From: Candidatus Zixiibacteriota bacterium
Lineage (GTDB): Bacteria > Zixibacteria > MSB-5A5 > GN15 > FEB-12
Direction of reading: 5' to 3'
Assembly (NCBI GenBank): GCA_041742355.1
Contig: JBGSIV010000144.1
Span: forward strand, 1-15,931
DNA: 15,931 nt
Shown here: piece by piece, positions 4,704 to 15,931 of the stretch
Layout of the letters: every line of letters starts with the position of its first letter
Numbering within the stretch: position 1 is the first letter of the stretch
Notes under the pieces: model-generated
What the model saw: the letters and a program-made list of their open reading frames with translations, nothing else
Databases searched by the model: none
What the model was told of the DNA's origin: nothing
Position numbers and translations under genes: made by a program

Positions 4704-5567
4704 ATGCACAAAATCCTCGTAATCGGCGGCACCGGCATGCTCGGCAAACCGGTCGCCACCCGTTTGGCCGGCGACGGCTTTGATGTCACGGTCATGTCTA
4801 CCCAACCCGAGAAGGCGGCCGCGAATCTCGGCAACCACATCCGGGTTGTCGATGGCGACGTCCGCCGCCCGGAAACACTCACGGCTGCGCTCACCGCCAG
4901 CGATGCCGTCTACATCAGCCTGAACGCTGAGGGGGATCCCGAGAAGCTTCGGTCGATTGAGGTCGAAGGCACTGCCGCTGTGGTCCGCGTCGCGCGCGAT
5001 TGCGGCGTGCGCCGCCTTATGATGATCTCCTCCTCCAACATCGGCGAGGGCCAGCCGCGCAGTGCGTATAGCGACGCCAAACTCACCGCCGAACGATCCC
5101 TCATCGACAGCGGCATCCCGTTCACGATCTTCCGCGCCTCGTGGTTCTTCGACGCGCTCCCGATGATGATCGAGAAGGGGGGCGGACGATTGCTCGGACA
5201 CCAGAAGCTCCCGCTCGGATGGCTCGCCGCCTCCGACTACGCTCGCCAGGTTGCCGCCGCACTGCGCACTGACTCCGCAGCGAATCAACTCTTCTACTGC
5301 CTCGGCCCTGAGAAAATGACCATGCTCGACGCCGCGCGCCGTTACTGCGTCCTGCGCGCGCCCCAGGTGAAACCGCAGGAGGTCCCCTTCTGGCAGGCGA
5401 AAATGGCCGCCGCGCTTCCCGGCATGGAAATCCTCCGCCACATCATCCCGTTCTTCGAATACATGGAGAAAGCCCACGAAGATGTTGACCCCCGTCCCGC
5501 CAATGCGTTACTTGGTCCCAATACGACCACACTTGAAGAGTGGGCGAGTACACTGCCACCGGCATAG
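4704..5567 (+). CDS. Atypical SDR / NmrA-like NAD(P)H-binding protein
   Basis: Rossmann motif ILVIGGTGMLG, YxxxK (YSDAK) and SGIPFTIFR. SD GAAGGG. Confidence 0.88.
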   Translation: MHKILVIGGTGMLGKPVATRLAGDGFDVTVMSTQPEKAAANLGNHIRVVDGDVRRPETLTAALTASDAVYISLNAEGDPEKLRSIEVEGTAAVVRVARDCGVRRLMMISSSNIGEGQPRSAYSDAKLTAERSLIDSGIPFTIFRASWFFDALPMMIEKGGGRLLGHQKLPLGWLAASDYARQVAAALRTDSAANQLFYCLGPEKMTMLDAARRYCVLRAPQVKPQEVPFWQAKMAAALPGMEILRHIIPFFEYMEKAHEDVDPRPANALLGPNTTTLEEWASTLPPA

Positions 5568-5597
5568 TCAACATCCGGCTTCCTGGGGAGGAAGATC

Positions 5598-6188
5598 ATG
5601 AAGCGCATTATTGTCCTGCTCCTTGGGCTCATTCTCGTCGCCGCCATCAACTGCTCTGCCTTCGATGGCAGCCGCAAAGGCTTCGTCCTTGGCGGCGGGA
5701 TTGGTTTTGCTCCGTATGCGCACTGGTCATCAAGTGCCGATGATTGGACCTTCAAACCGCTCGTCGATGAAACCGGCGGTGCTTTCGCCTCACACCTCTT
5801 GACCGGCTACGCCTGGGACGATCGCAACATGGCGGTCGTCGAGATGAACTGGGTGTTCTACGGCTCTGACATAGGGGATATCTACGGCGATGACGTCGAA
5901 GTCCACCACATGTTCATCGGTCCCGCCTGGTATCACTATTTCGGCCTGCGCGGGCACAGCTTCTACAGCTCTGTCGGCGTCGGGCGGTACGGCTTCGGTC
6001 AGCCTGGGACAATCGGCGTGTGGCGCGGCTGGTCGTATATGGTCAGCGGCGGCTACGAATTCACGAAGCAGGTGCAGGCCGGTGTTGTACTGGTCGGAGG
6101 CAAAGGCGAACCCTGCTGCGACAGCGATTCCGATCTCGATGTCGGTTCGGTCAACATCAGTCTCCTCCTGACCGTTGTCGCCTACTGA
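5598..6188 (+). CDS. Secreted outer-membrane beta-barrel protein (hypothetical)
   Basis: SD GGAGG, signal peptide MKRIIVLLLGLILVAAINCSA, alternating Gly/aromatic strands (GFVLGGGIGF, FYSSVGVG, GGYEF) and a C-terminal aromatic residue (VVAY). Confidence 0.75.
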   Translation: MKRIIVLLLGLILVAAINCSAFDGSRKGFVLGGGIGFAPYAHWSSSADDWTFKPLVDETGGAFASHLLTGYAWDDRNMAVVEMNWVFYGSDIGDIYGDDVEVHHMFIGPAWYHYFGLRGHSFYSSVGVGRYGFGQPGTIGVWRGWSYMVSGGYEFTKQVQAGVVLVGGKGEPCCDSDSDLDVGSVNISLLLTVVAY

Positions 6189-6243
6189 TCGCGGCCGATA
6201 GTTTTTGTTGCGGCCCTCCCGGAAGCACCCGCATACTCCTCCC

Positions 6244-7200
6244 ATGCATTACCAGCCGCTCCCGCGACTCGATACCGATACCGGCGCCGTCCGTTCCTCG
6301 CTCTTGCCCCACTGCCGCCTCCGCAAAGGGGACATCTGGCGTGACCCGCTCGGTCGCCATATCGTCGCCTGCGGCGATGCCGCCGACCCCGCGTTTATCC
6401 GCCGCCTCTTCGGGAAGCGCCGCGCCGCCCTTGCCATTCAGGATCCACCGTACAATCTCGTGATGGGGGAGAAGCTCCCCTCACTCGACTACACCGCCTG
6501 GTGCCGGCGCTGGATCGACACGACCTCCTCCATCCTCGCCGCCGACGCCGCCCTCTACATCTGGCTCGGCGCCGACCAGGACCACCACTTCCAGCCGCTG
6601 CCGCAGTTCATGGCGATGATGGCCGACACGCCGTTCGCCTCCCGCTCATTCATCACTATGCGCAACCAGCGCGGCTACGGTACCCAGCGCAACTGGATGG
6701 CCGTCCGCCAGGAACTGCTCTACTACACGAAAGGCAACCCGCCCTTCGCCGTGCAGTACACCGACATTCCGAAAGTCCTCCGCGGCTACTACAAAACTGT
6801 CGATGGTAAGCGCACCGAGAACACCGAGCGGGGGAGAGGCGATACTATCCGCCCCGGCAATGTCTGGGTCGACCTTCAGCAGGTATTCTACCGCCGCGAG
6901 GAAAATGTCAACGGCTGCTATGCACAGAAACCCCTCGCGGCCATCGAGCGTATCGTGATGGCTTCTTCGCGCACCGAGGATCTCGTCACCGATTTCTTCG
7001 CGCACTCGGGCACGACGTTAATCGCCTGCGAGCAGACCGGCCGTCTGTGTGTCACCTGCGACCTCGACCCGGTCTTCGCGGAGATCACGATCCGCCGCCT
7101 TGAACACTTCCGCACCACCGGGCGCACCGGCTGGCAAGCCGGGCACCCCTTTGAACAGGAACTACATCCGAATTCACCTTCTGTCGTTTCGTCTTTGTAA
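6244..7200 (+). CDS. Orphan DNA amino-methyltransferase (N6/N4 family, beta-class motif order)
   Basis: Motif IV DPPY near the N-terminus; QKP and motif I variant DFFAHSGTTL near the C-terminus. ATG 6244 is preferred over TTG 6205 because TTGCGG-18 nt-CATACT lies 6 nt upstream of it. Confidence 0.88.
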   Translation: MHYQPLPRLDTDTGAVRSSLLPHCRLRKGDIWRDPLGRHIVACGDAADPAFIRRLFGKRRAALAIQDPPYNLVMGEKLPSLDYTAWCRRWIDTTSSILAADAALYIWLGADQDHHFQPLPQFMAMMADTPFASRSFITMRNQRGYGTQRNWMAVRQELLYYTKGNPPFAVQYTDIPKVLRGYYKTVDGKRTENTERGRGDTIRPGNVWVDLQQVFYRREENVNGCYAQKPLAAIERIVMASSRTEDLVTDFFAHSGTTLIACEQTGRLCVTCDLDPVFAEITIRRLEHFRTTGRTGWQAGHPFEQELHPNSPSVVSSL

Positions 7201-7212
7201 GTTGGGGACAGC

Positions 7213-7701
7213 ATGAAAGATATCACCGGCACCGTGATCGTCGCCGGCGACGACATCACCACCGAAATGATTTGCCCTGCCAAACACCGCGCGGGGAAAC
7301 GCACCGAGATCGCCAAACACCTGCTTAAGGATCTGCCTGAATTCTCCGGCAAGAAACTGCCCGATAGCGCCATCATCGTGGCCGGCGACCGCTTCGGCCT
7401 CGGCGATGACGCCGAGAACACCGCCCGCGCCCTCCTGGCCGGCGGCGTGCGCTGCATCATCGCCCGATCCTTCCCGCGCGAGTTCTTCCGTCTCGCCATC
7501 AACGCCGGACTCCCGCTCATCACCGCCGACCTCGGCGGCCACTTCGATGGCGGCGAGCAGATCTGCGTCAACCTGCGCCGGGGGGTCATTATCATCGACG
7601 GGGGCGAGATCGAGGTCGGCAAATACTCCGAGCGCGTCGCCCGCATAGTTGAAAGCGGAGGGCTGATCAACGCCGTGCGCAAAGAGTTGGGGAAAGAGTA
7701 A
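7213..7701 (+). CDS. LeuD/HacB-family small (swivel) subunit homolog, catalytic motif degenerate
   Basis: GDDITTEMICPAKH (cf. GDNIDTDxIIPAxY), IIVAGDRFGLGDDAE (cf. IVAGxNFGCGSSRE) and IIARSFPREFFRLAINAGLP (cf. VIAxSFARIFFRNAINxGLP). SD GGGGA. Confidence 0.88.
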   Translation: MKDITGTVIVAGDDITTEMICPAKHRAGKRTEIAKHLLKDLPEFSGKKLPDSAIIVAGDRFGLGDDAENTARALLAGGVRCIIARSFPREFFRLAINAGLPLITADLGGHFDGGEQICVNLRRGVIIIDGGEIEVGKYSERVARIVESGGLINAVRKELGKE

Positions 7702-7716
7702 GGATTTGCGCGCAGG

Positions 7717-7744
7717 GGGAGTTCGCGTCTCGCCCACCCCGCCA
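7717..7744 (+). pseudogene. Degenerate tRNA 3' fragment (T-arm, acceptor strand and CCA; tRNA-Asp-like), probable att-site remnant
   Basis: GGGAG-TTCGCGT-CTCGC-CCACCCC-G-CCA has the 5-7-5-7-1-CCA spacing of a tRNA 3' end with discriminator G. There is one T-stem mismatch and A58 is replaced by C. No 5' half is present. It sits at the GC drop. Confidence 0.55.
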
Positions 7745-7807
7745 TTATCTTCGGTCTATAATAGCCATATTAAGTTTGTCGGTCCGTCAGATGTAAGACG
7801 GTTCACG

Positions 7808-8662
7808 TCAAAGTCTACCTTCGCCAGCGCGCCTCAGCAAAACTACACCGACCAATACGAGCATAATCCATGGTATAGCTGGGATCGAGAGTACGTTGCC
7901 CGGAATTGCATACCATGGGGAGAAATCCCACATTGGGTTCTGGGGCGACCGAAAGACCTCAATCATCTTGATTGCAACGCCCAGTACGGCAAATAGACTA
8001 ATCCCGACAAATGCGCGACTAGCGGATCGTCCGAGCCAGGAAGTTTTGCCGAGTGCAGCAGCAAACGACGCTGTCGCAAGATAAGTCAGCACCGCGCCAA
8101 AGAACAGCGCGACCAAAGACATCTCGTCCAGCATGGGGTTTGTAGAGTTCGCCTGTTGTGAAACAGCGCGCTCAATCGCACGATACTCAATTAAAGAGAT
8201 GGAAGTGAAGATGGCGTAAAGTGGGAAGGCGAATATGATCGCAGCAAAACCGAGCGTTGAGTAAAAACGTTCGCCGGCTTCGCTCAGAGCTTGTCGGAGG
8301 ACCACCAGTCCGCCCGCGATCATAAGCGCATTGATTAGGAGAATAAGATAACGCAGCTGATTCTCTGACGGGGTCGCAAGTGGTGGCGCGCTGAAGCCGG
8401 CAAGGAAGGAAAAGAGAATCCAAGGCATGATCAGCAATCCTCCAGCAACAGCGAGCTTGCGACTATCCTCCGCCTCCGCTTTGATCGCCGACACCCCAAG
8501 TTTCCACGCAGCAACACTGGCTACGATACATTGTATTAGAGCGATCGTGTAATATACAATTGGGCTGTATGTAGCACGCACGGCAAACATCACAGTTATC
8601 AAAACAAGATTGGCACATAGGATAAAGTAGCTTAGGCGACGATTGCTGTGACCTCCTGGCAT
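7808..8662 (-). CDS. Hypothetical polytopic membrane protein (~7-8 TM)
   Basis: 284-aa ORF with SD GAAGGG and many hydrophobic segments. No family recognised. Confidence 0.8.
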   Translation of the reverse strand: MPGGHSNRRLSYFILCANLVLITVMFAVRATYSPIVYYTIALIQCIVASVAAWKLGVSAIKAEAEDSRKLAVAGGLLIMPWILFSFLAGFSAPPLATPSENQLRYLILLINALMIAGGLVVLRQALSEAGERFYSTLGFAAIIFAFPLYAIFTSISLIEYRAIERAVSQQANSTNPMLDEMSLVALFFGAVLTYLATASFAAALGKTSWLGRSASRAFVGISLFAVLGVAIKMIEVFRSPQNPMWDFSPWYAIPGNVLSIPAIPWIMLVLVGVVLLRRAGEGRL

Positions 8663-8735
8663 ATGTTGTTCCCTTCAGTTGGAAGTGCGTCCGCAGAGAA
8701 ACCGGACAATGTGATACTCTAATTTAAGAGCCACT

Positions 8736-8882
8736 TTATCCTAAGGCAACAGCTATCAATGATGAGAATCCTGTGCCTGGCAATCGGTTGTTTTCCGTCG
8801 AGTTCCGCCTATTCGAGCATACTGGAACCGAATAGCGCAGTCTAAGCTCACAGGAGTCTGGGGAGAGTGAGGGCGGGGCCGC
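8736..8882. repeat. Direct repeat copy A (att-like junction)
   Basis: Core 8849-8882 CACAGGAGTCTGGGGAGAGTGAGGGCGGGGCCGC is 30/34 identical to copy B and 27/34 to copy C. Weaker similarity extends leftward. Confidence 0.85.
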
Positions 8883-9058
8883 TTTATTCACGGGTCCCCA
8901 TACTCTACGATTAATCTGTTTTCCTTCCGGCAATTTCTCTAAGTTCTTGAAAGTCTCTTAATCCTCTCTTGGGACAGGGCAGGACAAGACAACAAACCCT
9001 CAGTCAATGACGGTGGAAAGTCTTGTAAGTACAGCGTAACGGATAAGTGTGCCATAAA

Positions 9059-10441
9059 CTACTGTTGTACGTCTCTCTCTGATTCGCGCTCTTGGGCAGC
9101 TTTGATTTGCTCCCAATTGACACTCTTCTCGATCGGCTGCCCATGTTCCTCAGGGCTTCTATACGTACCTCGTTCGACGACTGGTTTATCGATTTCAACC
9201 TGTAAGCGATGCTCCCGGGCGTATGCATCGCGACGAATACCGGTCACCTGCCAGGAAACTTCCACATTTGGGCTGTCGGTTCGAATGACGAAGCGGTTGC
9301 TAGTAATCTTCGCAGCGACAATCGCTTGAGCGAACTGACCAATTACCGTGAGCTGATACCGGAAATCCATGTTCAGTGCTTCAAAATACGCCGGAAGGGT
9401 CACAACGGCCATACCTTTGGTATCCGTCACTGTGATGCCGTCGTAGATGTTCTTCATGTCGGGCGACTCGACGAAACTGTGTTGAAGGTACTTGTTTCCC
9501 GGATCAAGGGGATGGTCGATCTTAAACGCGCCTGCGTTTTTTGTCAGCGTGCCGCCGATATCAACATTACCTGCGAAATAACCAGCATAGCCAGCGCCAG
9601 TGCCGATCTTCAATCCATAAATGGCAAAAGCAGAGGCGCCTGGTCCTGAAGCGGCAGCTCCGTATACGCCATACGACGCCCCAGAACTCTTTGAACTTCT
9701 TCCTGCTGAACCATAAATACCATATTGACTTGCTGTCGAAGTTGGGTCGTTTGCAACCGAGGCATAGACCCCATACCTGAGTCCACGACCATCTCCGATT
9801 GTATCACCTACCGCGTAGTATGCACCGTAAAGAATCCCCCCCAAGCTATTATGTAGATCGGAATAATACCCAAATCGAGCAGCGGAGGTACTGTAACTTC
9901 GCGTTGCTCGGATCAGGTAAGAGCTGCTGGGGCTAATTGAATCCCCAATTCTAATACCGTTATCGTCTGCTAGCATCGTGCTATCACCAATCTTGACTAC
10001 ACCACCAGTAAAGACTGCGTCACCGGTGATCGTGCCTCCCGATGCTCCATCCACAGAATTGACTCTGAATGCATAGCCAGTAGAAACAAGCGACGTGCGT
10101 GGAAGGAGCGTCTCGTTATTGAAGTTCACTTGCAAGTAAAGTGAATCGTATTTTGCAAACAAACTGTCCGGAATCGGATTCACACCGCCCATCATGCAAT
10201 TGAACAGCCCGCCAGTAGTCGTGACATTTACTCCTTCTTCCGACCAACGTAAACTCCCGACTGTCGGGTGATCCCAAATGAGAAATTTAACTGGATACGT
10301 GCCGTCCGGCACTAAATTACCTGAGGCGTCGGTGGCCCTTCCTTGATAACTGATTACTCTTGGCACGCCGGCTGTTGCCACGACCACCAACAGCCAACAA
10401 ACGATGATTGAGAGAACGAAGATTTTGTAGTGATGTCTCAT
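9059..10441 (-). CDS. Secreted/surface protein with N-terminal VPxxISYQG domain, GxYG-rich repeats and C-terminal FKIDHPLDP domain
   Basis: ATG 10441 follows SD GGGAG. Signal peptide MRHHYKIFVLSIIVCWLLVVVATA, repeats YGVYA/YGIYG/YGVYG/AIYG/YAGYFAG, and C-terminal FKIDHPLDPGNKYLQHSFVESPDMKNIYDG. The track start at 10540 is probably too long. Confidence 0.8.
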   Translation of the reverse strand: MRHHYKIFVLSIIVCWLLVVVATAGVPRVISYQGRATDASGNLVPDGTYPVKFLIWDHPTVGSLRWSEEGVNVTTTGGLFNCMMGGVNPIPDSLFAKYDSLYLQVNFNNETLLPRTSLVSTGYAFRVNSVDGASGGTITGDAVFTGGVVKIGDSTMLADDNGIRIGDSISPSSSYLIRATRSYSTSAARFGYYSDLHNSLGGILYGAYYAVGDTIGDGRGLRYGVYASVANDPTSTASQYGIYGSAGRSSKSSGASYGVYGAAASGPGASAFAIYGLKIGTGAGYAGYFAGNVDIGGTLTKNAGAFKIDHPLDPGNKYLQHSFVESPDMKNIYDGITVTDTKGMAVVTLPAYFEALNMDFRYQLTVIGQFAQAIVAAKITSNRFVIRTDSPNVEVSWQVTGIRRDAYAREHRLQVEIDKPVVERGTYRSPEEHGQPIEKSVNWEQIKAAQERESERDVQQ

Positions 10442-10577
10442 GACGTTACTCCCGGATATATATGAATCTGTGGGCTTGATTGCGATTCGGGATCGCTTGT
10501 GATGACGACAAAATTGGCAGAATGTACGAGCGCATGACAAGAGACCTTTCCAAAGGTAAGTAGGCTCGCTGTAATGA

Positions 10578-10586
10578 AATATAACA
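10578..10586 (-). promoter_or_regulatory. Possible extended -10 promoter for the 9059-10441 gene
   Basis: Minus strand TGT-TATATT, with TTGATT 15 nt upstream of the hexamer. Confidence 0.35.
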
Positions 10587-10626
10587 AAAGGCCTCGCTAA
10601 TCAAAGGCGGATTGTTGGGGAAGGGA

Positions 10627-10794
10627 TTACTGAATGCTTAGGTTGGAAGCCTGCCCGAATGCAGTCCGAATCAACGATGACGCTCCTCGCATTTGATTGC
10701 CTTCCATCGACTTCCGCTGACTCGGGTATAGTGAAACAGGATCGGAAACTGGAACACCACAGGAGTTTGGCGAAAGTGAGGTCGGGGCCGCCAT
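10627..10794. repeat. Direct repeat copy B (att-like junction, keeps terminal CCA)
   Basis: Core 10758-10793 CACAGGAGTTTGGCGAAAGTGAGGTCGGGGCCGCCA. The minus strand is a 55-aa ORF MAAPTSLSPNSCGV...SIQ. Confidence 0.85.
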
Positions 10795-10911
10795 TTCTTG
10801 CTCACTGAAAGGGTCTTCTTATTGGCTTCAGCTCAACCAAGACGATATATACCATTTTGGGGGAACGATTCAGAACATTGCGTGTCGCACTGAATCGAAT
10901 AGACACACTAT

Positions 10912-11817
10912 TCAAGGCCTATACTTATAAATCACAGCGGAACTGACCCAATGGGCGCTCAGACCCGCACCCGTATTTCTTAGAAAAAACAGATATTTCC
11001 CATCCCGAGTCACATTGGCTCCAACTTCATGGACGTACCGCTCATTGAGTTCTTCCATAGGTACGGCCTGAATCCAGGCGCCGGCAGCGTTCTTGAAGCT
11101 TATGTATAAATCTGCATACTTGATTTCTGATTTATTGTCTACACGGGACAGAATAAGATAACTCTCGTCAGGGGCAATGAATGGTTCATTATCGTTCGTT
11201 TCCCCGTTAATCGCAGGACCAAGAGCTTCTGGTTCGGCATATTCGCCGTCGACAAAACGGGACATATAAATGTCTCCGTCGCCGGTAGAGCTTGAACTGA
11301 AATACAAGTTTCCGTTATCAGCAACCGATACCTGCCAATGCAGACGCAGTCTATTTATTTTTTCACTCAGTTGTTGCGGCGCGCTCCAACCTTCTCCATC
11401 GCGCTCCATGAACCAGATATTTTCCTTGGGATCGGCGCCAGCACTTCTGGGTACCCTGGAATTGAAAAATAGACGTTTCCCGTCGGGTGTCAGGATGGGT
11501 GAATCGGACCAGTTAAGCTCCCTGGAAAATGCGAACTCCTTGGGAATGCTCCATACGCCATCTACTGTTGTGGAATAATGCATCCGAAAGCCGGCCATGG
11601 TTGACCAATATGCTTCCATCCCATCAGGCGTAAACACCGGACAGCCGTGTAGATCAGGTTCAATGATGCCTTGAGCAAAAACAAGCGGTTTCAAGTCTGG
11701 AGGTTTCTGCCCAAGATAGGGACCTGTCAGAACCGGGAAATCATCCTGCTGTGCGTTGACAATAGGAGTCAATATAGCGGAAACTACAATCAGAGCGCCA
11801 ATTGCAATTAATCTCAT
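10912..11817 (-). CDS. Secreted PD40/TolB-like beta-propeller protein
   Basis: Signal peptide, GPYLGQKPP, and PD40-like repeats PVFTPDG, PILTPDGKRLFFNS, PFIAPDESYLI and VTRDGKYLFF. Confidence 0.85.
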   Translation of the reverse strand: MRLIAIGALIVVSAILTPIVNAQQDDFPVLTGPYLGQKPPDLKPLVFAQGIIEPDLHGCPVFTPDGMEAYWSTMAGFRMHYSTTVDGVWSIPKEFAFSRELNWSDSPILTPDGKRLFFNSRVPRSAGADPKENIWFMERDGEGWSAPQQLSEKINRLRLHWQVSVADNGNLYFSSSSTGDGDIYMSRFVDGEYAEPEALGPAINGETNDNEPFIAPDESYLILSRVDNKSEIKYADLYISFKNAAGAWIQAVPMEELNERYVHEVGANVTRDGKYLFFLRNTGAGLSAHWVSSAVIYKYRP

Positions 11818-11877
11818 TGTTCGGTAACCTCGATTCTGTTCAATTATCTCCTACTACGTTAAAGAGAACGAGACGTT

Positions 11878-11986
11878 TCATTTCAGTTTATTAGCTTCCG
11901 ACGTGTTCCGGCTGGCGAGGAATAGCTCGATTTGACTTGAAATCTGAACTCCATAAAAGTTTGTGGAGAGTGATGTCGGGGCCGCC
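11878..11986. repeat. Direct repeat copy C (att-like junction)
   Basis: Core 11952-11985 CATAAAAGTTTGTGGAGAGTGATGTCGGGGCCGC is 27/34 identical to copies A and B. Confidence 0.8.
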
Positions 11987-12327
11987 CTTGTGTCCCGTTG
12001 TCTCTGTCCTCGGATTGTGGCCACAGCAATATCCGGCACCCCGCTTCCCCCAGCGACTCTGCCTGAGGTTCTGGCCCGGATCTCTCTCAATTCCCACTGA
12101 CGACTTTTCCTCCGCAGCGTTTGGTATTGCCGGCACGCGCCGAACTCCTGCAACCTCGACAGAGCGTGAGCGTAAGCGGGAGGAAAAGAGTCTTCTTACT
12201 CATGTCCATTCTTAGTTGAACAAACAGCCTCTCCCCACGTCTATAGTGCATAGCCGCCAGTTGCACCAGTTTGCCTATAGATGAGCCAAAGAGCGTAACA
12301 GGAGTTTCATCATCGAGGGTATTGCTA

Positions 12328-14064
12328 ATGAAGGACTATTGTGGTCGGGTGGCGATGCGGAGCGCACTGGCATTACTGCTGGCTGGATCCGCCGGAACCG
12401 CTGCGGACTTGCACAGGAACACTCTCTCGGCAGTACAAACGGACTCCGTCAGCTGCCGGCATGACTTCGGGGACAATGGTTTTGTCGGCACTTCAAGCGA
12501 GTGTGAAATCTACTACGGTCTGAATGACAGTCACGGGCACAGCTGGGTTCAGGAGAACAACCAGGGCGTCGTGGGTATCACGTACTTTCAACGGTTGGAA
12601 GATGGCAGTCAGAACGGCTCGCTGATATACAGGACAATTCATCCCGATGGGACCATAGAATCTGAAACGGTCGCTGAAGGCACTCGACTGCAACGATCGG
12701 TCTTGTTGTACGATTCACTCTCCATGCCGCACATCTTTGTGGCACAATCCGGCACCGGAGATCAGATTATTGAGCACTACTACAAAGGCGATTCGGGTCT
12801 GTGGCAGAGGGAAGAGGTATTCCACTTCTTCAGCTGGGGAGGTCGATACATTTACGAGTTGTCAGCCGATCTCGGGCCTGACAATTCCTTCCACCTGCTT
12901 GTGTTGAAGACGCAATCCGATGTCGATTCCGACGACTACTGGAATGCCTGGATGAACGCATCTCTGTTTCATATCTCAAATGCACCCGGCTTCTGGCGGA
13001 CAGATTTCATTTACAGTTACAATACGGCCTACACATATGATCATTACATCAAGTGCTCATGTCGCCAGGACATCGAGGTGGATCATGATGGCTATGTGCA
13101 TGTTGTCTTCTCGCAGCAGATAGTGGCTGTCGACGATCCCTCGAGACTCCTCTACGCGACGAACAAATCCGGCTCCTGGAAAATTGAGACGGCGCTCAGC
13201 AATGATTTCGGGGCCAGGGATGATGCGGGTTGGTTTCCCTCGCTGTGTCTCGACCGGCAGGGGACACCGTATGTCGCGTGCATGTATGTCAACCGGGTAT
13301 ATACCTATTCGGCCGTCTACTGCAAGCTCTTCCTGCTGCAGAGAGTGAGCGAGGGCGTCTGGCAGCGCCAGCTCGTTGCAGAGAGTGATGACGGGTATTA
13401 TGGCAGTGACGGCAGGCGTTATACGGGTGCTTTGTCGCATCTGGTGTTCGACCGCGACAACGTTCCCCACATACTCTTCTCCGATATCGCTTCCTCGCAC
13501 CGGACATACCAGCACCTGAACGTGGGCAACATAAGACACGCGGTGTACCGGGGCGGCGCCTGGAACCTAACAACGATCTATCGACAACCGCTGCCCATTG
13601 CTTTCCAGAACGCAACCGAGATGTTCGGAGAGTGCCTCGTCGTATCCGATCTGACCGATACCATACGCGTCATCGGGCAGGAACTGAAGGTTACCGGGCC
13701 GGGGGCATATTCCGTCGGACTTGTGGAGTTCGCATGGGCCGACATTGCGACATCGGCTTCCGATGAACCTGCGGCAAACTTGCCCGACCAGTTCTGCCTG
13801 ATCCAGAACTACCCGAACCCGTTCAACCAGGGGACGGTGATCGGGTACAGCCTCCCGACTCGATCACAGGTGACAATCGAGATCTTTGACATCCTCGGCC
13901 ACCTGGTCCGGACATTGGTAAATGGATCCAGGGCAGCCGGTTCATATTGGATAGAATGGGACGGAGTCGCTGACGGCGGAGCTGGCGCGGCTACCGGCGT
14001 GTATCTGTATCGTCTCCGGGCCGGCGATGTTGAGCAGACAAAGAAGATGTTGCTGATCAAGTAG
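12328..14064 (+). CDS. Secreted protein with beta-rich repeats and C-terminal FlgD-Ig / T9SS type-A-like sorting domain
   Basis: ATG 12328 follows GAGGG (alternative start 12355). Signal-like segment RSALALLLAGSAGTA. C-terminus QNYPNPFN...IFDILGHLVRTL...WDG...GVYLYRL...KKMLLIK. Confidence 0.82.
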   Translation: MKDYCGRVAMRSALALLLAGSAGTAADLHRNTLSAVQTDSVSCRHDFGDNGFVGTSSECEIYYGLNDSHGHSWVQENNQGVVGITYFQRLEDGSQNGSLIYRTIHPDGTIESETVAEGTRLQRSVLLYDSLSMPHIFVAQSGTGDQIIEHYYKGDSGLWQREEVFHFFSWGGRYIYELSADLGPDNSFHLLVLKTQSDVDSDDYWNAWMNASLFHISNAPGFWRTDFIYSYNTAYTYDHYIKCSCRQDIEVDHDGYVHVVFSQQIVAVDDPSRLLYATNKSGSWKIETALSNDFGARDDAGWFPSLCLDRQGTPYVACMYVNRVYTYSAVYCKLFLLQRVSEGVWQRQLVAESDDGYYGSDGRRYTGALSHLVFDRDNVPHILFSDIASSHRTYQHLNVGNIRHAVYRGGAWNLTTIYRQPLPIAFQNATEMFGECLVVSDLTDTIRVIGQELKVTGPGAYSVGLVEFAWADIATSASDEPAANLPDQFCLIQNYPNPFNQGTVIGYSLPTRSQVTIEIFDILGHLVRTLVNGSRAAGSYWIEWDGVADGGAGAATGVYLYRLRAGDVEQTKKMLLIK

Positions 14065-14183
14065 TGATGTTCAGCACATGGTCCTTGAACCAGGGGTTGG
14101 GGCCGCTTGGATCCGCAGTCAGAACGCCGTTGGCGGTTGGCGATGAGCGCAGACATTGTGGCGGCAATTGGGTCCCCCCGGTC

Positions 14184-14218
14184 AAAAAAAACAGGAGGCT
14201 GACCACGTCAACCTCCTG
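14184..14218 (-). terminator. Intrinsic terminator of katG
   Basis: Minus strand CAGGAGGTTGAC-GTG-GTCAGCCTCCTG followed by T8, starting 23 nt after the katG stop. Confidence 0.9.
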
Positions 14219-14241
14219 CTGAATAGTCCTCTTCTCCTGAT

Positions 14242-15931
<1,690 letters not shown>

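Follow-up and report, generated by a model that had tools for sequence, protein, structure and literature searches.

Repeats in a Zixibacteria gene island as probable junctions of serine recombinase islands integrated at tRNA-Asp

The window analysed here is the whole stretch of 15,931 nucleotides (nt) from a Candidatus Zixiibacteriota genome (G000, 93.8% complete, 310 contigs), in which three copies of a one-directional repeat, elements A, B and C, lie between accessory genes. These elements are probably the far-end junctions of large serine recombinase (LSR) islands that were integrated serially behind tRNA-Asp(GTC). This reading is carried by the anatomy of the array, its link to tRNA-Asp, the continuity of the recombinase gene with the element, and a single strain difference that breaks inside the core.

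The repeat element, its recombinase frame and its tRNA-Asp anchor

The initial annotation had described three same-orientation repeats with 34-nt cores at 8849–8882 (A), 10758–10791 (B) and 11952–11985 (C); the pairwise identities were recomputed as 30/34, 27/34 and 27/34, and the three-repeat observation is confirmed. Its statement that the similarity extends leftward of the cores and stops rightward also held: in pairwise comparison of the three copies, 79, 61 and 68 of 115 positions were identical on the left and 6–12 of 40, the chance level, on the right. The full element is therefore ~115 nt long rather than 34, runs in one direction and has the 34-nt cores as its ends. A separate repeat search of the window recovered the same three-copy family. 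Exactly one long open reading frame (ORF) occupies each gap between successive copies, as had been noted (9059–10540 between A and B, 10912–11817 between B and C). A profile built from the three copies found three further full copies in G000 (two on contig C299 and one on C167, E 4e-20 to 7.5e-13), and BLAST with copy B alone found the element in 25 of 61 Zixibacteria genomes of the same order (G000 counted), with a best E of 1.9e-22; the repeats are therefore above chance.

A sequence-only model, R1, was built from 56 copies and used with a cut-off of E ≤ 1e-5. It scored A at 74.9 bits (E 3.8e-23), B at 89 bits (E 1.6e-27) and C at 82.1 bits (E 2.3e-25), and found the element in 43/61 genomes at 1–23 copies each (by family of the order, 25/36 genomes in f1, 0/5 in f2, 9/10 in f3 and 8/9 in f4). 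Copies cluster on one strand: the closed genome G039 has all five of its copies inside 7 kb, G016 has more than 20 on one 50-kb stretch, and G005 has seven in 8 kb. An exact-pattern scan of the species collection gave 74 stretches, mostly labelled Candidatus Zixiibacteriota or Ignavibacteria/-les, the other labels being single contigs only.

At two loci, the element is entered by an ORF of 511 amino acids (aa) that has Resolvase, Recombinase and zinc-ribbon domains. The Pfam families PF00239, PF07508 and PF13408 were matched together in L111:2926–4461, L144:1800–3272, L148:1189–2742 and L149:9690–11138. The recombinase ORF enters the element without a stop in G001 (contig C24), L069, G018 (contig C22, partial) and database protein P0002, and in those four sequences the element supplies the last ~34 codons of the ORF. 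A 511-aa database protein has the tail in common at 80% identity; a search of the protein database with the tail gave five matches, two with the full tail, in a word-limited search that does not measure rarity. When the recombinase was compared with G000 by tblastn, a full homologue was found on contig C99 and residues 450–510 matched the elements themselves; the C-terminus (residues 471–510) matched copy C at 12008–11889 with 50% identity.

Of 133 anchored copies, 111 keep the recombinase frame open over 25 codons or more, most of them with the same stop position, and the encoded peptide has an invariant H-S-P-Q-T near its start, alternating aromatic/hydrophobic residues and G-x-R-W-K near its end. 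Entropy at the three codon positions was 0.82, 0.83 and 1.03 in 80 in-register copies, which were selected for keeping the last motif; the first ten codons are fixed, third positions included. We read the element as a putative DNA site (the P half-site) followed by a piece that is apparently under protein-level constraint. Past the core, conservation vanishes within 4–9 nt (150 junctions) and the contents vary, terminator-like hairpins being commonest, with recombinase 3′ remnants, an inverted element head and a tRNA-Asp-like fragment also seen. The inverted copy of the element head lies ~55 nt past the core, heads facing, in at least eight junctions (L079, L105, L057, L064, L020, L028 at ~12121, L050 at ~5778 and L118).

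ARAGORN found the pair tRNA-Val(TAC)-tRNA-Asp(GTC) on the opposite strand of array loci, to the tail side of the array. The tRNA-Asp and the element stand on one contig in 17 relatives, and 16 of the 17 show the expected side and strand, the elements lying 0.8–46 kb downstream of tRNA-Asp and their reverse strand running in the direction of the tRNA. In G016, 308 nt separate the tRNA from the end of its contig, and an element opens the main array contig. The first module after the tRNA varies by genome: a 2′-5′ RNA ligase family protein, a CBAH hydrolase, a DUF5122 propeller, a methyltransferase, an ankyrin protein, a metallo-beta-lactamase fold, a UDG family protein, or a three-gene unit also present in G039.

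A recombinase gene next to such a core had been named by the initial annotation as a thing to look for, and it was found: an LSR gene, convergent and at ≤350 nt, adjoins the 3′ end of tRNA-Asp in 12 of the 61 genomes scanned (G031, G023, G024, G033, G036, G040, G037, G045, G028, G039, G029 and G041), and enters the element in others. In the alignment of junctions, the recombinase side is constant up to GCGG (CCGC on the tRNA strand), which is common to every junction type, and continues as the reverse complement of tRNA-Asp, as another tRNA or as the element. Because the gene reads straight into the element elsewhere yet abuts tRNA-Asp when integrated, the attachment site is placed inside the recombinase gene. 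The element would replace the tRNA arm in attP, the shared core probably being the CCGCCA tRNA end. The alignments show a recombinase family that integrates at tRNA 3′ ends with its ORF crossing the att core, the element being the piece beyond the core. The recombinase gene on C99 of G000 (17689–19211; L149 9690–11211) ends in the reverse complement of tRNA-Ser(TGA), not tRNA-Asp, and no element-like far end was found on this 22-kb contig.

The repeats had been likened to the 3′ end of an Asp-type tRNA ending GTCGGGGCCGCCA. The Asp type stood, tRNA-Asp(GTC) being the anchor; the ending did not, since no tRNA-Asp ends so and the real tRNA-Asp of G000 ends GTCAACCCCGCCA. The GTCGGGGCCGCCA stretch is probably the recombinase-gene side of attP and merely resembles a tRNA end. 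Some element copies carry 9–13 nt identical to the true tRNA-Asp end.

Recombinase-bearing islands carry defence and maintenance genes: type I-E CRISPR-Cas genes and an RND pump in G001, an Eco57I-type methylase-Schlafen protein and an SNF2/PLD helicase in G031, and ParB_N, D12 methylase and radical SAM genes in G036. A full tyrosine-recombinase-like gene (PF00589, weak) lies directly upstream of the LSR gene at L145 12550–13647, L148 2870–3973 and L099 4842–5654; these genes (L111/L145, L148, L099) were not tied to the element. In the islands concerned (G001, G031), the tyrosine-recombinase-like gene is followed by the same genes of 157–166 aa, 609–617 aa (QueC-like) and 259–262 aa, a pattern suggestive of an island backbone that is conserved and has two recombinases. 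A truncated tyrosine-recombinase C-terminus, ~70 residues with catalytic motifs, stands between a partial and a full element at L084 2452–2982.

Two further arrangements were seen beside tRNA-Asp. On contig C1 of G014 (L113), a perfect 144-nt direct repeat (8142–8285 and 9267–9410) brackets an ankyrin-repeat gene and follows the tRNA and a single element. It consists of the last 9 nt of tRNA-Asp and 135 nt of downstream flank, far exceeds the length of a serine-integrase core and does not fit a simple core-only exchange. A unit of three to four genes (247–257 aa, 821 aa and a third gene) is common to G039 (L028 6293–10803) and G030 (L127 5756–10027), adjoining the array end in the former and tRNA-Asp in the latter; the third gene of the G039 version has a pPIWI-associated nuclease domain, and the unit is probably a defence module.

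Layout of the island and differences among strains and congeners

The island extends from 7745 to 14100 with a GC content of 0.51, between flanks of 0.63 and 0.62; GC drops to 0.47–0.56 across 7501–9000. On the tRNA strand, the order is partial tRNA-Asp, module 1, A, module 2, B, module 3, C, module 4 and katG, with the following coordinates (T9SS, type IX secretion system).

7711..7744, + strand: partial tRNA-Asp(GTC) 3′ end, with variable loop, T arm, acceptor 3′ strand and CCA
7808..8662, − strand: module 1, 284-aa multi-pass membrane protein (ORF; no Pfam family)
8777..8893, − strand: element A, recombinase 3′-end coding fragment, P half-site and core (profile matches)
9059..10540, − strand: module 2, secreted or anchored surface protein of ~460–493 aa (ORF; no Pfam family)
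10684..10799, − strand: element B, core CCGCCATT at 10788–10795 on the + strand; right end of the X3 joint (see below)
10912..11817, − strand: module 3, 301-aa PD40 beta-propeller protein with signal peptide (Pfam PD40, E 3e-10)
11876..11991, − strand: element C, core end ~11982–11988 on the + strand
12271..14064, + strand: module 4, 597 aa, with FlgD_ig / Por_Secre_tail (T9SS-type) C-terminal sorting domain (Pfam)
14242..15930, − strand: katG (catalase-peroxidase), truncated by the contig end; conserved far flank (Pfam peroxidase)

ARAGORN called no tRNA gene in the window. The partial tRNA-Asp, which the initial annotation did not contain, was found by direct comparison: 7719–7744 and tRNA-Asp positions 52–77 are identical at 23 of 26 positions (E 0.003 in the window), and a gapped alignment reaches 7711. 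It was the top of 706 scanned windows (gapped score 45, runner-up 37), is on the predicted strand and lies ~20 nt past the stop codon where synteny with G002 (contig C6) and G001 (contig C17) ends. The island is bounded by it on the tRNA side, and the shared core includes its last 8 nt.

In element A, the core end is at ~8879–8884 on the + strand, the CCA is degraded and the frame is open throughout; the frame of element B is open for 40 codons. Module 2 likely starts at the ATG at 10442. Module 3 is 42% identical to a PD40 module of G039 that has elements on both sides. Module 4 (GC 0.52–0.59) is oriented opposite to the elements. No significant R1 match to a fourth copy followed module 4; the 18-nt head-like match at 14095–14112 (E 1.8) and another inside module 4 at 13377–13395 (E 0.57) were treated as chance. 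The katG of the window is 86% identical in aa sequence to that of the congener G002, which likewise limits the array at the end opposite to tRNA-Asp, synteny being kept. Outside the island, an NmrA-like NAD-binding gene and a 196-aa family-less ORF at 4704–6188 have no counterpart at the syntenic place in G002; they sit among conserved genes, beside an N6/N4 DNA methylase gene (6205–7200).

Contigs of four public runs (X1–X4) were aligned to 6500–15000 at 88% likeness. X1 contains 0.96 of the words sampled from 7600–14300 and may be the source sample; its contigs break within element A (8828–8871), one single contig spans B and C, and repeats of the element may fragment assemblies of such islands. 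In X3, the metagenome of another study, one contig joins 7738 to 10788, and the 8 letters CCGCCATT fit both sides. The joint omits module 1, A, module 2 and B, and its breakpoint is inside the core; the initial annotation had proposed comparing strains for such a difference, and one is provided by this single low-depth contig. In X3 and X4, 7920–10759 is uncovered, as are module 1 and 9624–10475 in module 2, and module 3 is covered at ~99% identity; uncovered parts in X2–X4 are no proof of absence, except where the X3 contig bridges them. Two other joints in X3/X4 (7396 to 13805 and 7454 to 13809; sides of 20–21 letters, high depth) probably come from other organisms or repeats and were left unused.

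Between G000 and G002, the cassettes differ, the elements match and katG stays in place. The interval between the methyltransferase and CBAH orthologues holds an element, a GT87 gene and an element in G000, and an unrelated 466-aa ORF and a headless element in G002. Between families f1 and f4, GNAT modules are 82% and methyltransferase modules 80% identical, and CBAH is 67–75% identical both within the genus and between families; these identities suggest a possible transfer of modules.

Proposed mechanism and alternative explanations

An LSR island would integrate at the extreme 3′ end of tRNA-Asp(GTC), with attP inside the recombinase gene, ~34 codons short of the stop. Either free or beside an older element, the gene would read through the core and gain the conserved tail of ~34 residues; once integrated at the tRNA, it would end a few codons into the tRNA reverse complement, and the tail-coding piece (the attR side, with P half-site and core) would be stranded at the other end of the island as the element. 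Repeated integration with loss of recombinase bodies would produce accessory-gene modules set apart by elements that all lie on one strand. What we infer here is in what order the events took place, where exactly the crossover falls and what became of the recombinase genes: each element would stand for one past integration, the recombinase bodies having been lost later or, in some modules, never having been present. The modules may be the remains of larger recombinase-bearing islands rather than the autonomous one-gene islets, mobilised in trans, of the initial annotation, and elements may have been re-used as landing sites. The interpretation given in the initial annotation is upheld in part: serial site-specific integration at a tRNA-type att core, with junctions of the att type, is supported by the tRNA-Asp anchor, the recombinase and the X3 breakpoint.

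Several observations weigh against this reading. Recombinase 3′ remnants of at least 50 nt are present at only ~7–8 of 150 junctions (one on C299 of G000), and loss of recombinase genes must therefore be assumed. Five genomes (G023, G031, G033, G037 and G040) have the recombinase at tRNA-Asp but no R1 element, and in G059, 1 of the 17 relatives with both on one contig, side and strand of the element are wrong. G000 has its intact tRNA-Asp on a different contig, C156, beside another T9SS-tail protein gene and the contig end, and no recombinase gene abuts it; its separation from the window island is either a rearrangement or an assembly problem, and these are indistinguishable. The partial tRNA match is modest alone (E 0.003 in the window, 0.86 genome-wide), the X3 joint is a single contig of depth 2.1 whose shorter side has 56 letters, at 88% likeness, and gene calls in relatives are longest-ORF calls. 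To our knowledge, canonical serine integrases do not recombine attL/attR hybrid sites without a directionality factor; because they do not re-use attL or attR, the growth of the array is unexplained.

An active cassette platform, in which the elements are re-usable landing pads and recombinase-less single-gene modules are moved in trans by the LSR in the manner of integron cassettes, is possible although doubtful. It would leave the proposed anatomy unchanged and give the elements a function today. Across 150 copies from many genera, the 25–30 nt beside the core hardly vary, which would fit a site still in use, but fast turnover of scars copied from a constrained attP also yields high conservation. 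The modules are compact, with one to few genes in either orientation; the CBAH, GNAT, methyltransferase and PD40 families recur at differing array or tRNA positions, and recurring modules are 80–82% identical in aa sequence between two families of the order. Many recombinase-less junctions retain a hairpin and an A/T-rich spacer resembling the recombinase 3′ end, yet past the core the junction side shows little conservation overall. The X3 joint drops two modules precisely at the cores, but neither a circular cassette nor an empty/filled pair at single-module resolution was seen, and no serine integrase is known to recombine a pair of attP-like or hybrid sites unaided by a directionality factor. 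In G001, a 37-kb recombinase island has elements on both sides; serial integration at the tRNA would look identical. An integron-like LSR capture platform may tentatively be imagined, and is rather unlikely: the element would mimic the tRNA-Asp end as a landing pad and supply the C-terminal tail, the tailed or tail-less state would set direction, and modules would be shuffled in trans.

The initial annotation had offered as an alternative a shared cis-element ahead of each minus-strand gene, which could be a promoter, an operator or a 5′ leader RNA. The copies of the window all lie 55–240 nt upstream of a co-oriented gene, and in G000, G002 and G060 the CBAH gene has kept its upstream element. 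The arrangement of the window, an element followed by a co-oriented gene, is however the minority class. From 217 hits (167 unique), 130 were classified with an ORF at ≤600 nt on both sides; the element tail faces a gene start in 51/130 and a gene end in 79/130, 35/130 lie between two gene ends, and the singletons in G025 and G047 are between convergent genes. A promoter or leader of co-oriented genes is ruled out by the orientation count and the convergent-gene singletons. The Rfam scan of the whole window gave no match at E ≤ 1, and helices were without support: RNAalifold gave 0 pairs on 56 copies (gene strand only folded), a nested-helix model had 59.8% paired cells versus 60.0% in shuffles, and a second helix was marginal (69.3% versus 67.1%, reached by 8/500 shuffles, a one-column slide scoring equally). 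The cis-regulatory explanation is very improbable.

Equally improbable is a small non-autonomous mobile repeat (MITE/REP/BIME-like) spreading into intergenic regions on its own. The element is multi-copy, intergenic and ~115 nt long and occurs in all four kinds of intergenic context, but it forms same-strand clusters tied to tRNA-Asp instead of being dispersed (five copies within 7 kb in G039), has no terminal inverted repeats, has one sharp and one fading end, and is in frame with the recombinase gene. No dispersed copies with target-site duplications were seen in closed genomes.

Least probable of all is an integron-type array without integrase (CALIN) with the repeats as attC sites: same-strand sites of ~110 nt between mostly single accessory genes, GC below that of the genome and content differing among congeners all recall one, but the copies lack hairpin symmetry, the genes are in both orientations, the element continues a serine recombinase ORF and PF00589 genes are away from the arrays in 5/5 genomes. 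The 24 PF00589 matches in G000, G016, G039, G005 and G053 include none on an array-bearing contig of the draft genomes, and in the closed single-contig G039 the nearest is ~260 kb from the array. The earlier statement that the repeats lack attC palindromes agrees with the RNAalifold result and with two hand-drawn helices that found no support, and the element is neither an attC-like hairpin nor a structured RNA, at least on the strand folded. The integron-like route proposed at the outset survives as an analogy only, attC hairpin and IntI-type recombinase both being absent in these tests.

Significance and comparison with known systems

Serial LSR integration behind tRNA-Asp would account for the accumulation of envelope, secreted and defence genes at a single hot spot of the chromosome in an uncultured phylum, and such islands could be recognised in metagenome-assembled genomes by the element as a simple sequence marker. 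A bacterial LSR counterpart of the split integrase gene would mean that this arrangement arose twice, and with the split LSR gene it could be tested whether the splitting governs direction. As genome-insertion tools, serine integrases whose target is a defined, universal tRNA end would be of practical interest. No earlier description of the element was found in the literature searched (Zixibacteria integrons and serine recombinases, attP in serine integrase genes, tRNA tandem islands), coverage that leaves out most subscription journals.

For the split gene, the closest parallel appears to be the SSV-type ('suicidal') integrases of archaeal viruses and plasmids. According to PMC7253208, these carry attP in the ORF, so that integration into a tRNA gene splits the integrase gene, whose pieces come to lie at either end of the integrated element; the att site is translated within the protein, tandem integration can restore an intact gene, and the type, which consists of tyrosine recombinases, is 'so far restricted to archaea'. 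The likeness is that attP lies inside the recombinase ORF (in four independent sequences here) and that integration partitions the gene. The recombinase here is a bacterial LSR and so not a member of that family despite the similar working, and only the last ~34 codons are split off, Resolvase, Recombinase and Zn ribbon (to ~residue 320–350) staying together.

For the island, tycheposon islands of Prochlorococcus may be the closest parallel. According to bioRxiv 10.1101/2020.12.28.424599, these islands adjoin particular tRNA genes, successive integrations push older elements outward, and the islands contain partial att/tRNA repeats, degraded recombinase genes, and niche and defence cargo; tyrosine recombinases are present in 910/937 tycheposons and the repeats are partial tRNAs. 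In both, the island follows immediately on the 3′ side of a tRNA gene and contains att repeats of one orientation (16/17 genomes here), whereas the repeat here is a 115-nt recombinase-gene fragment mimicking a tRNA end, the modules are mostly of one gene and the recombinase belongs to another superfamily.

Integrons and CALINs likewise have one-directional recombination sites of ~60–140 nt between mostly single accessory genes at one locus; there, a folded attC hairpin and the tyrosine recombinase IntI are at work, and neither is found here.

For an LSR array with recombinase-less modules, composite islands of the staphylococcal cassette chromosome (SCC) seem the closest parallel. In these, ccr-less pseudo-SCC modules are separated by direct repeats. 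Common to both are LSRs acting at the 3′ end of one conserved gene and tandem modules, many of them recombinase-less, with direct att repeats between them. The two differ in target, in the position and length of att (~15–20 bp and outside the ccr genes in SCC) and in host phylum: SCC integrates at rlmH, as given in PMC13739063, in contrast to the tRNA target of the islands described here.

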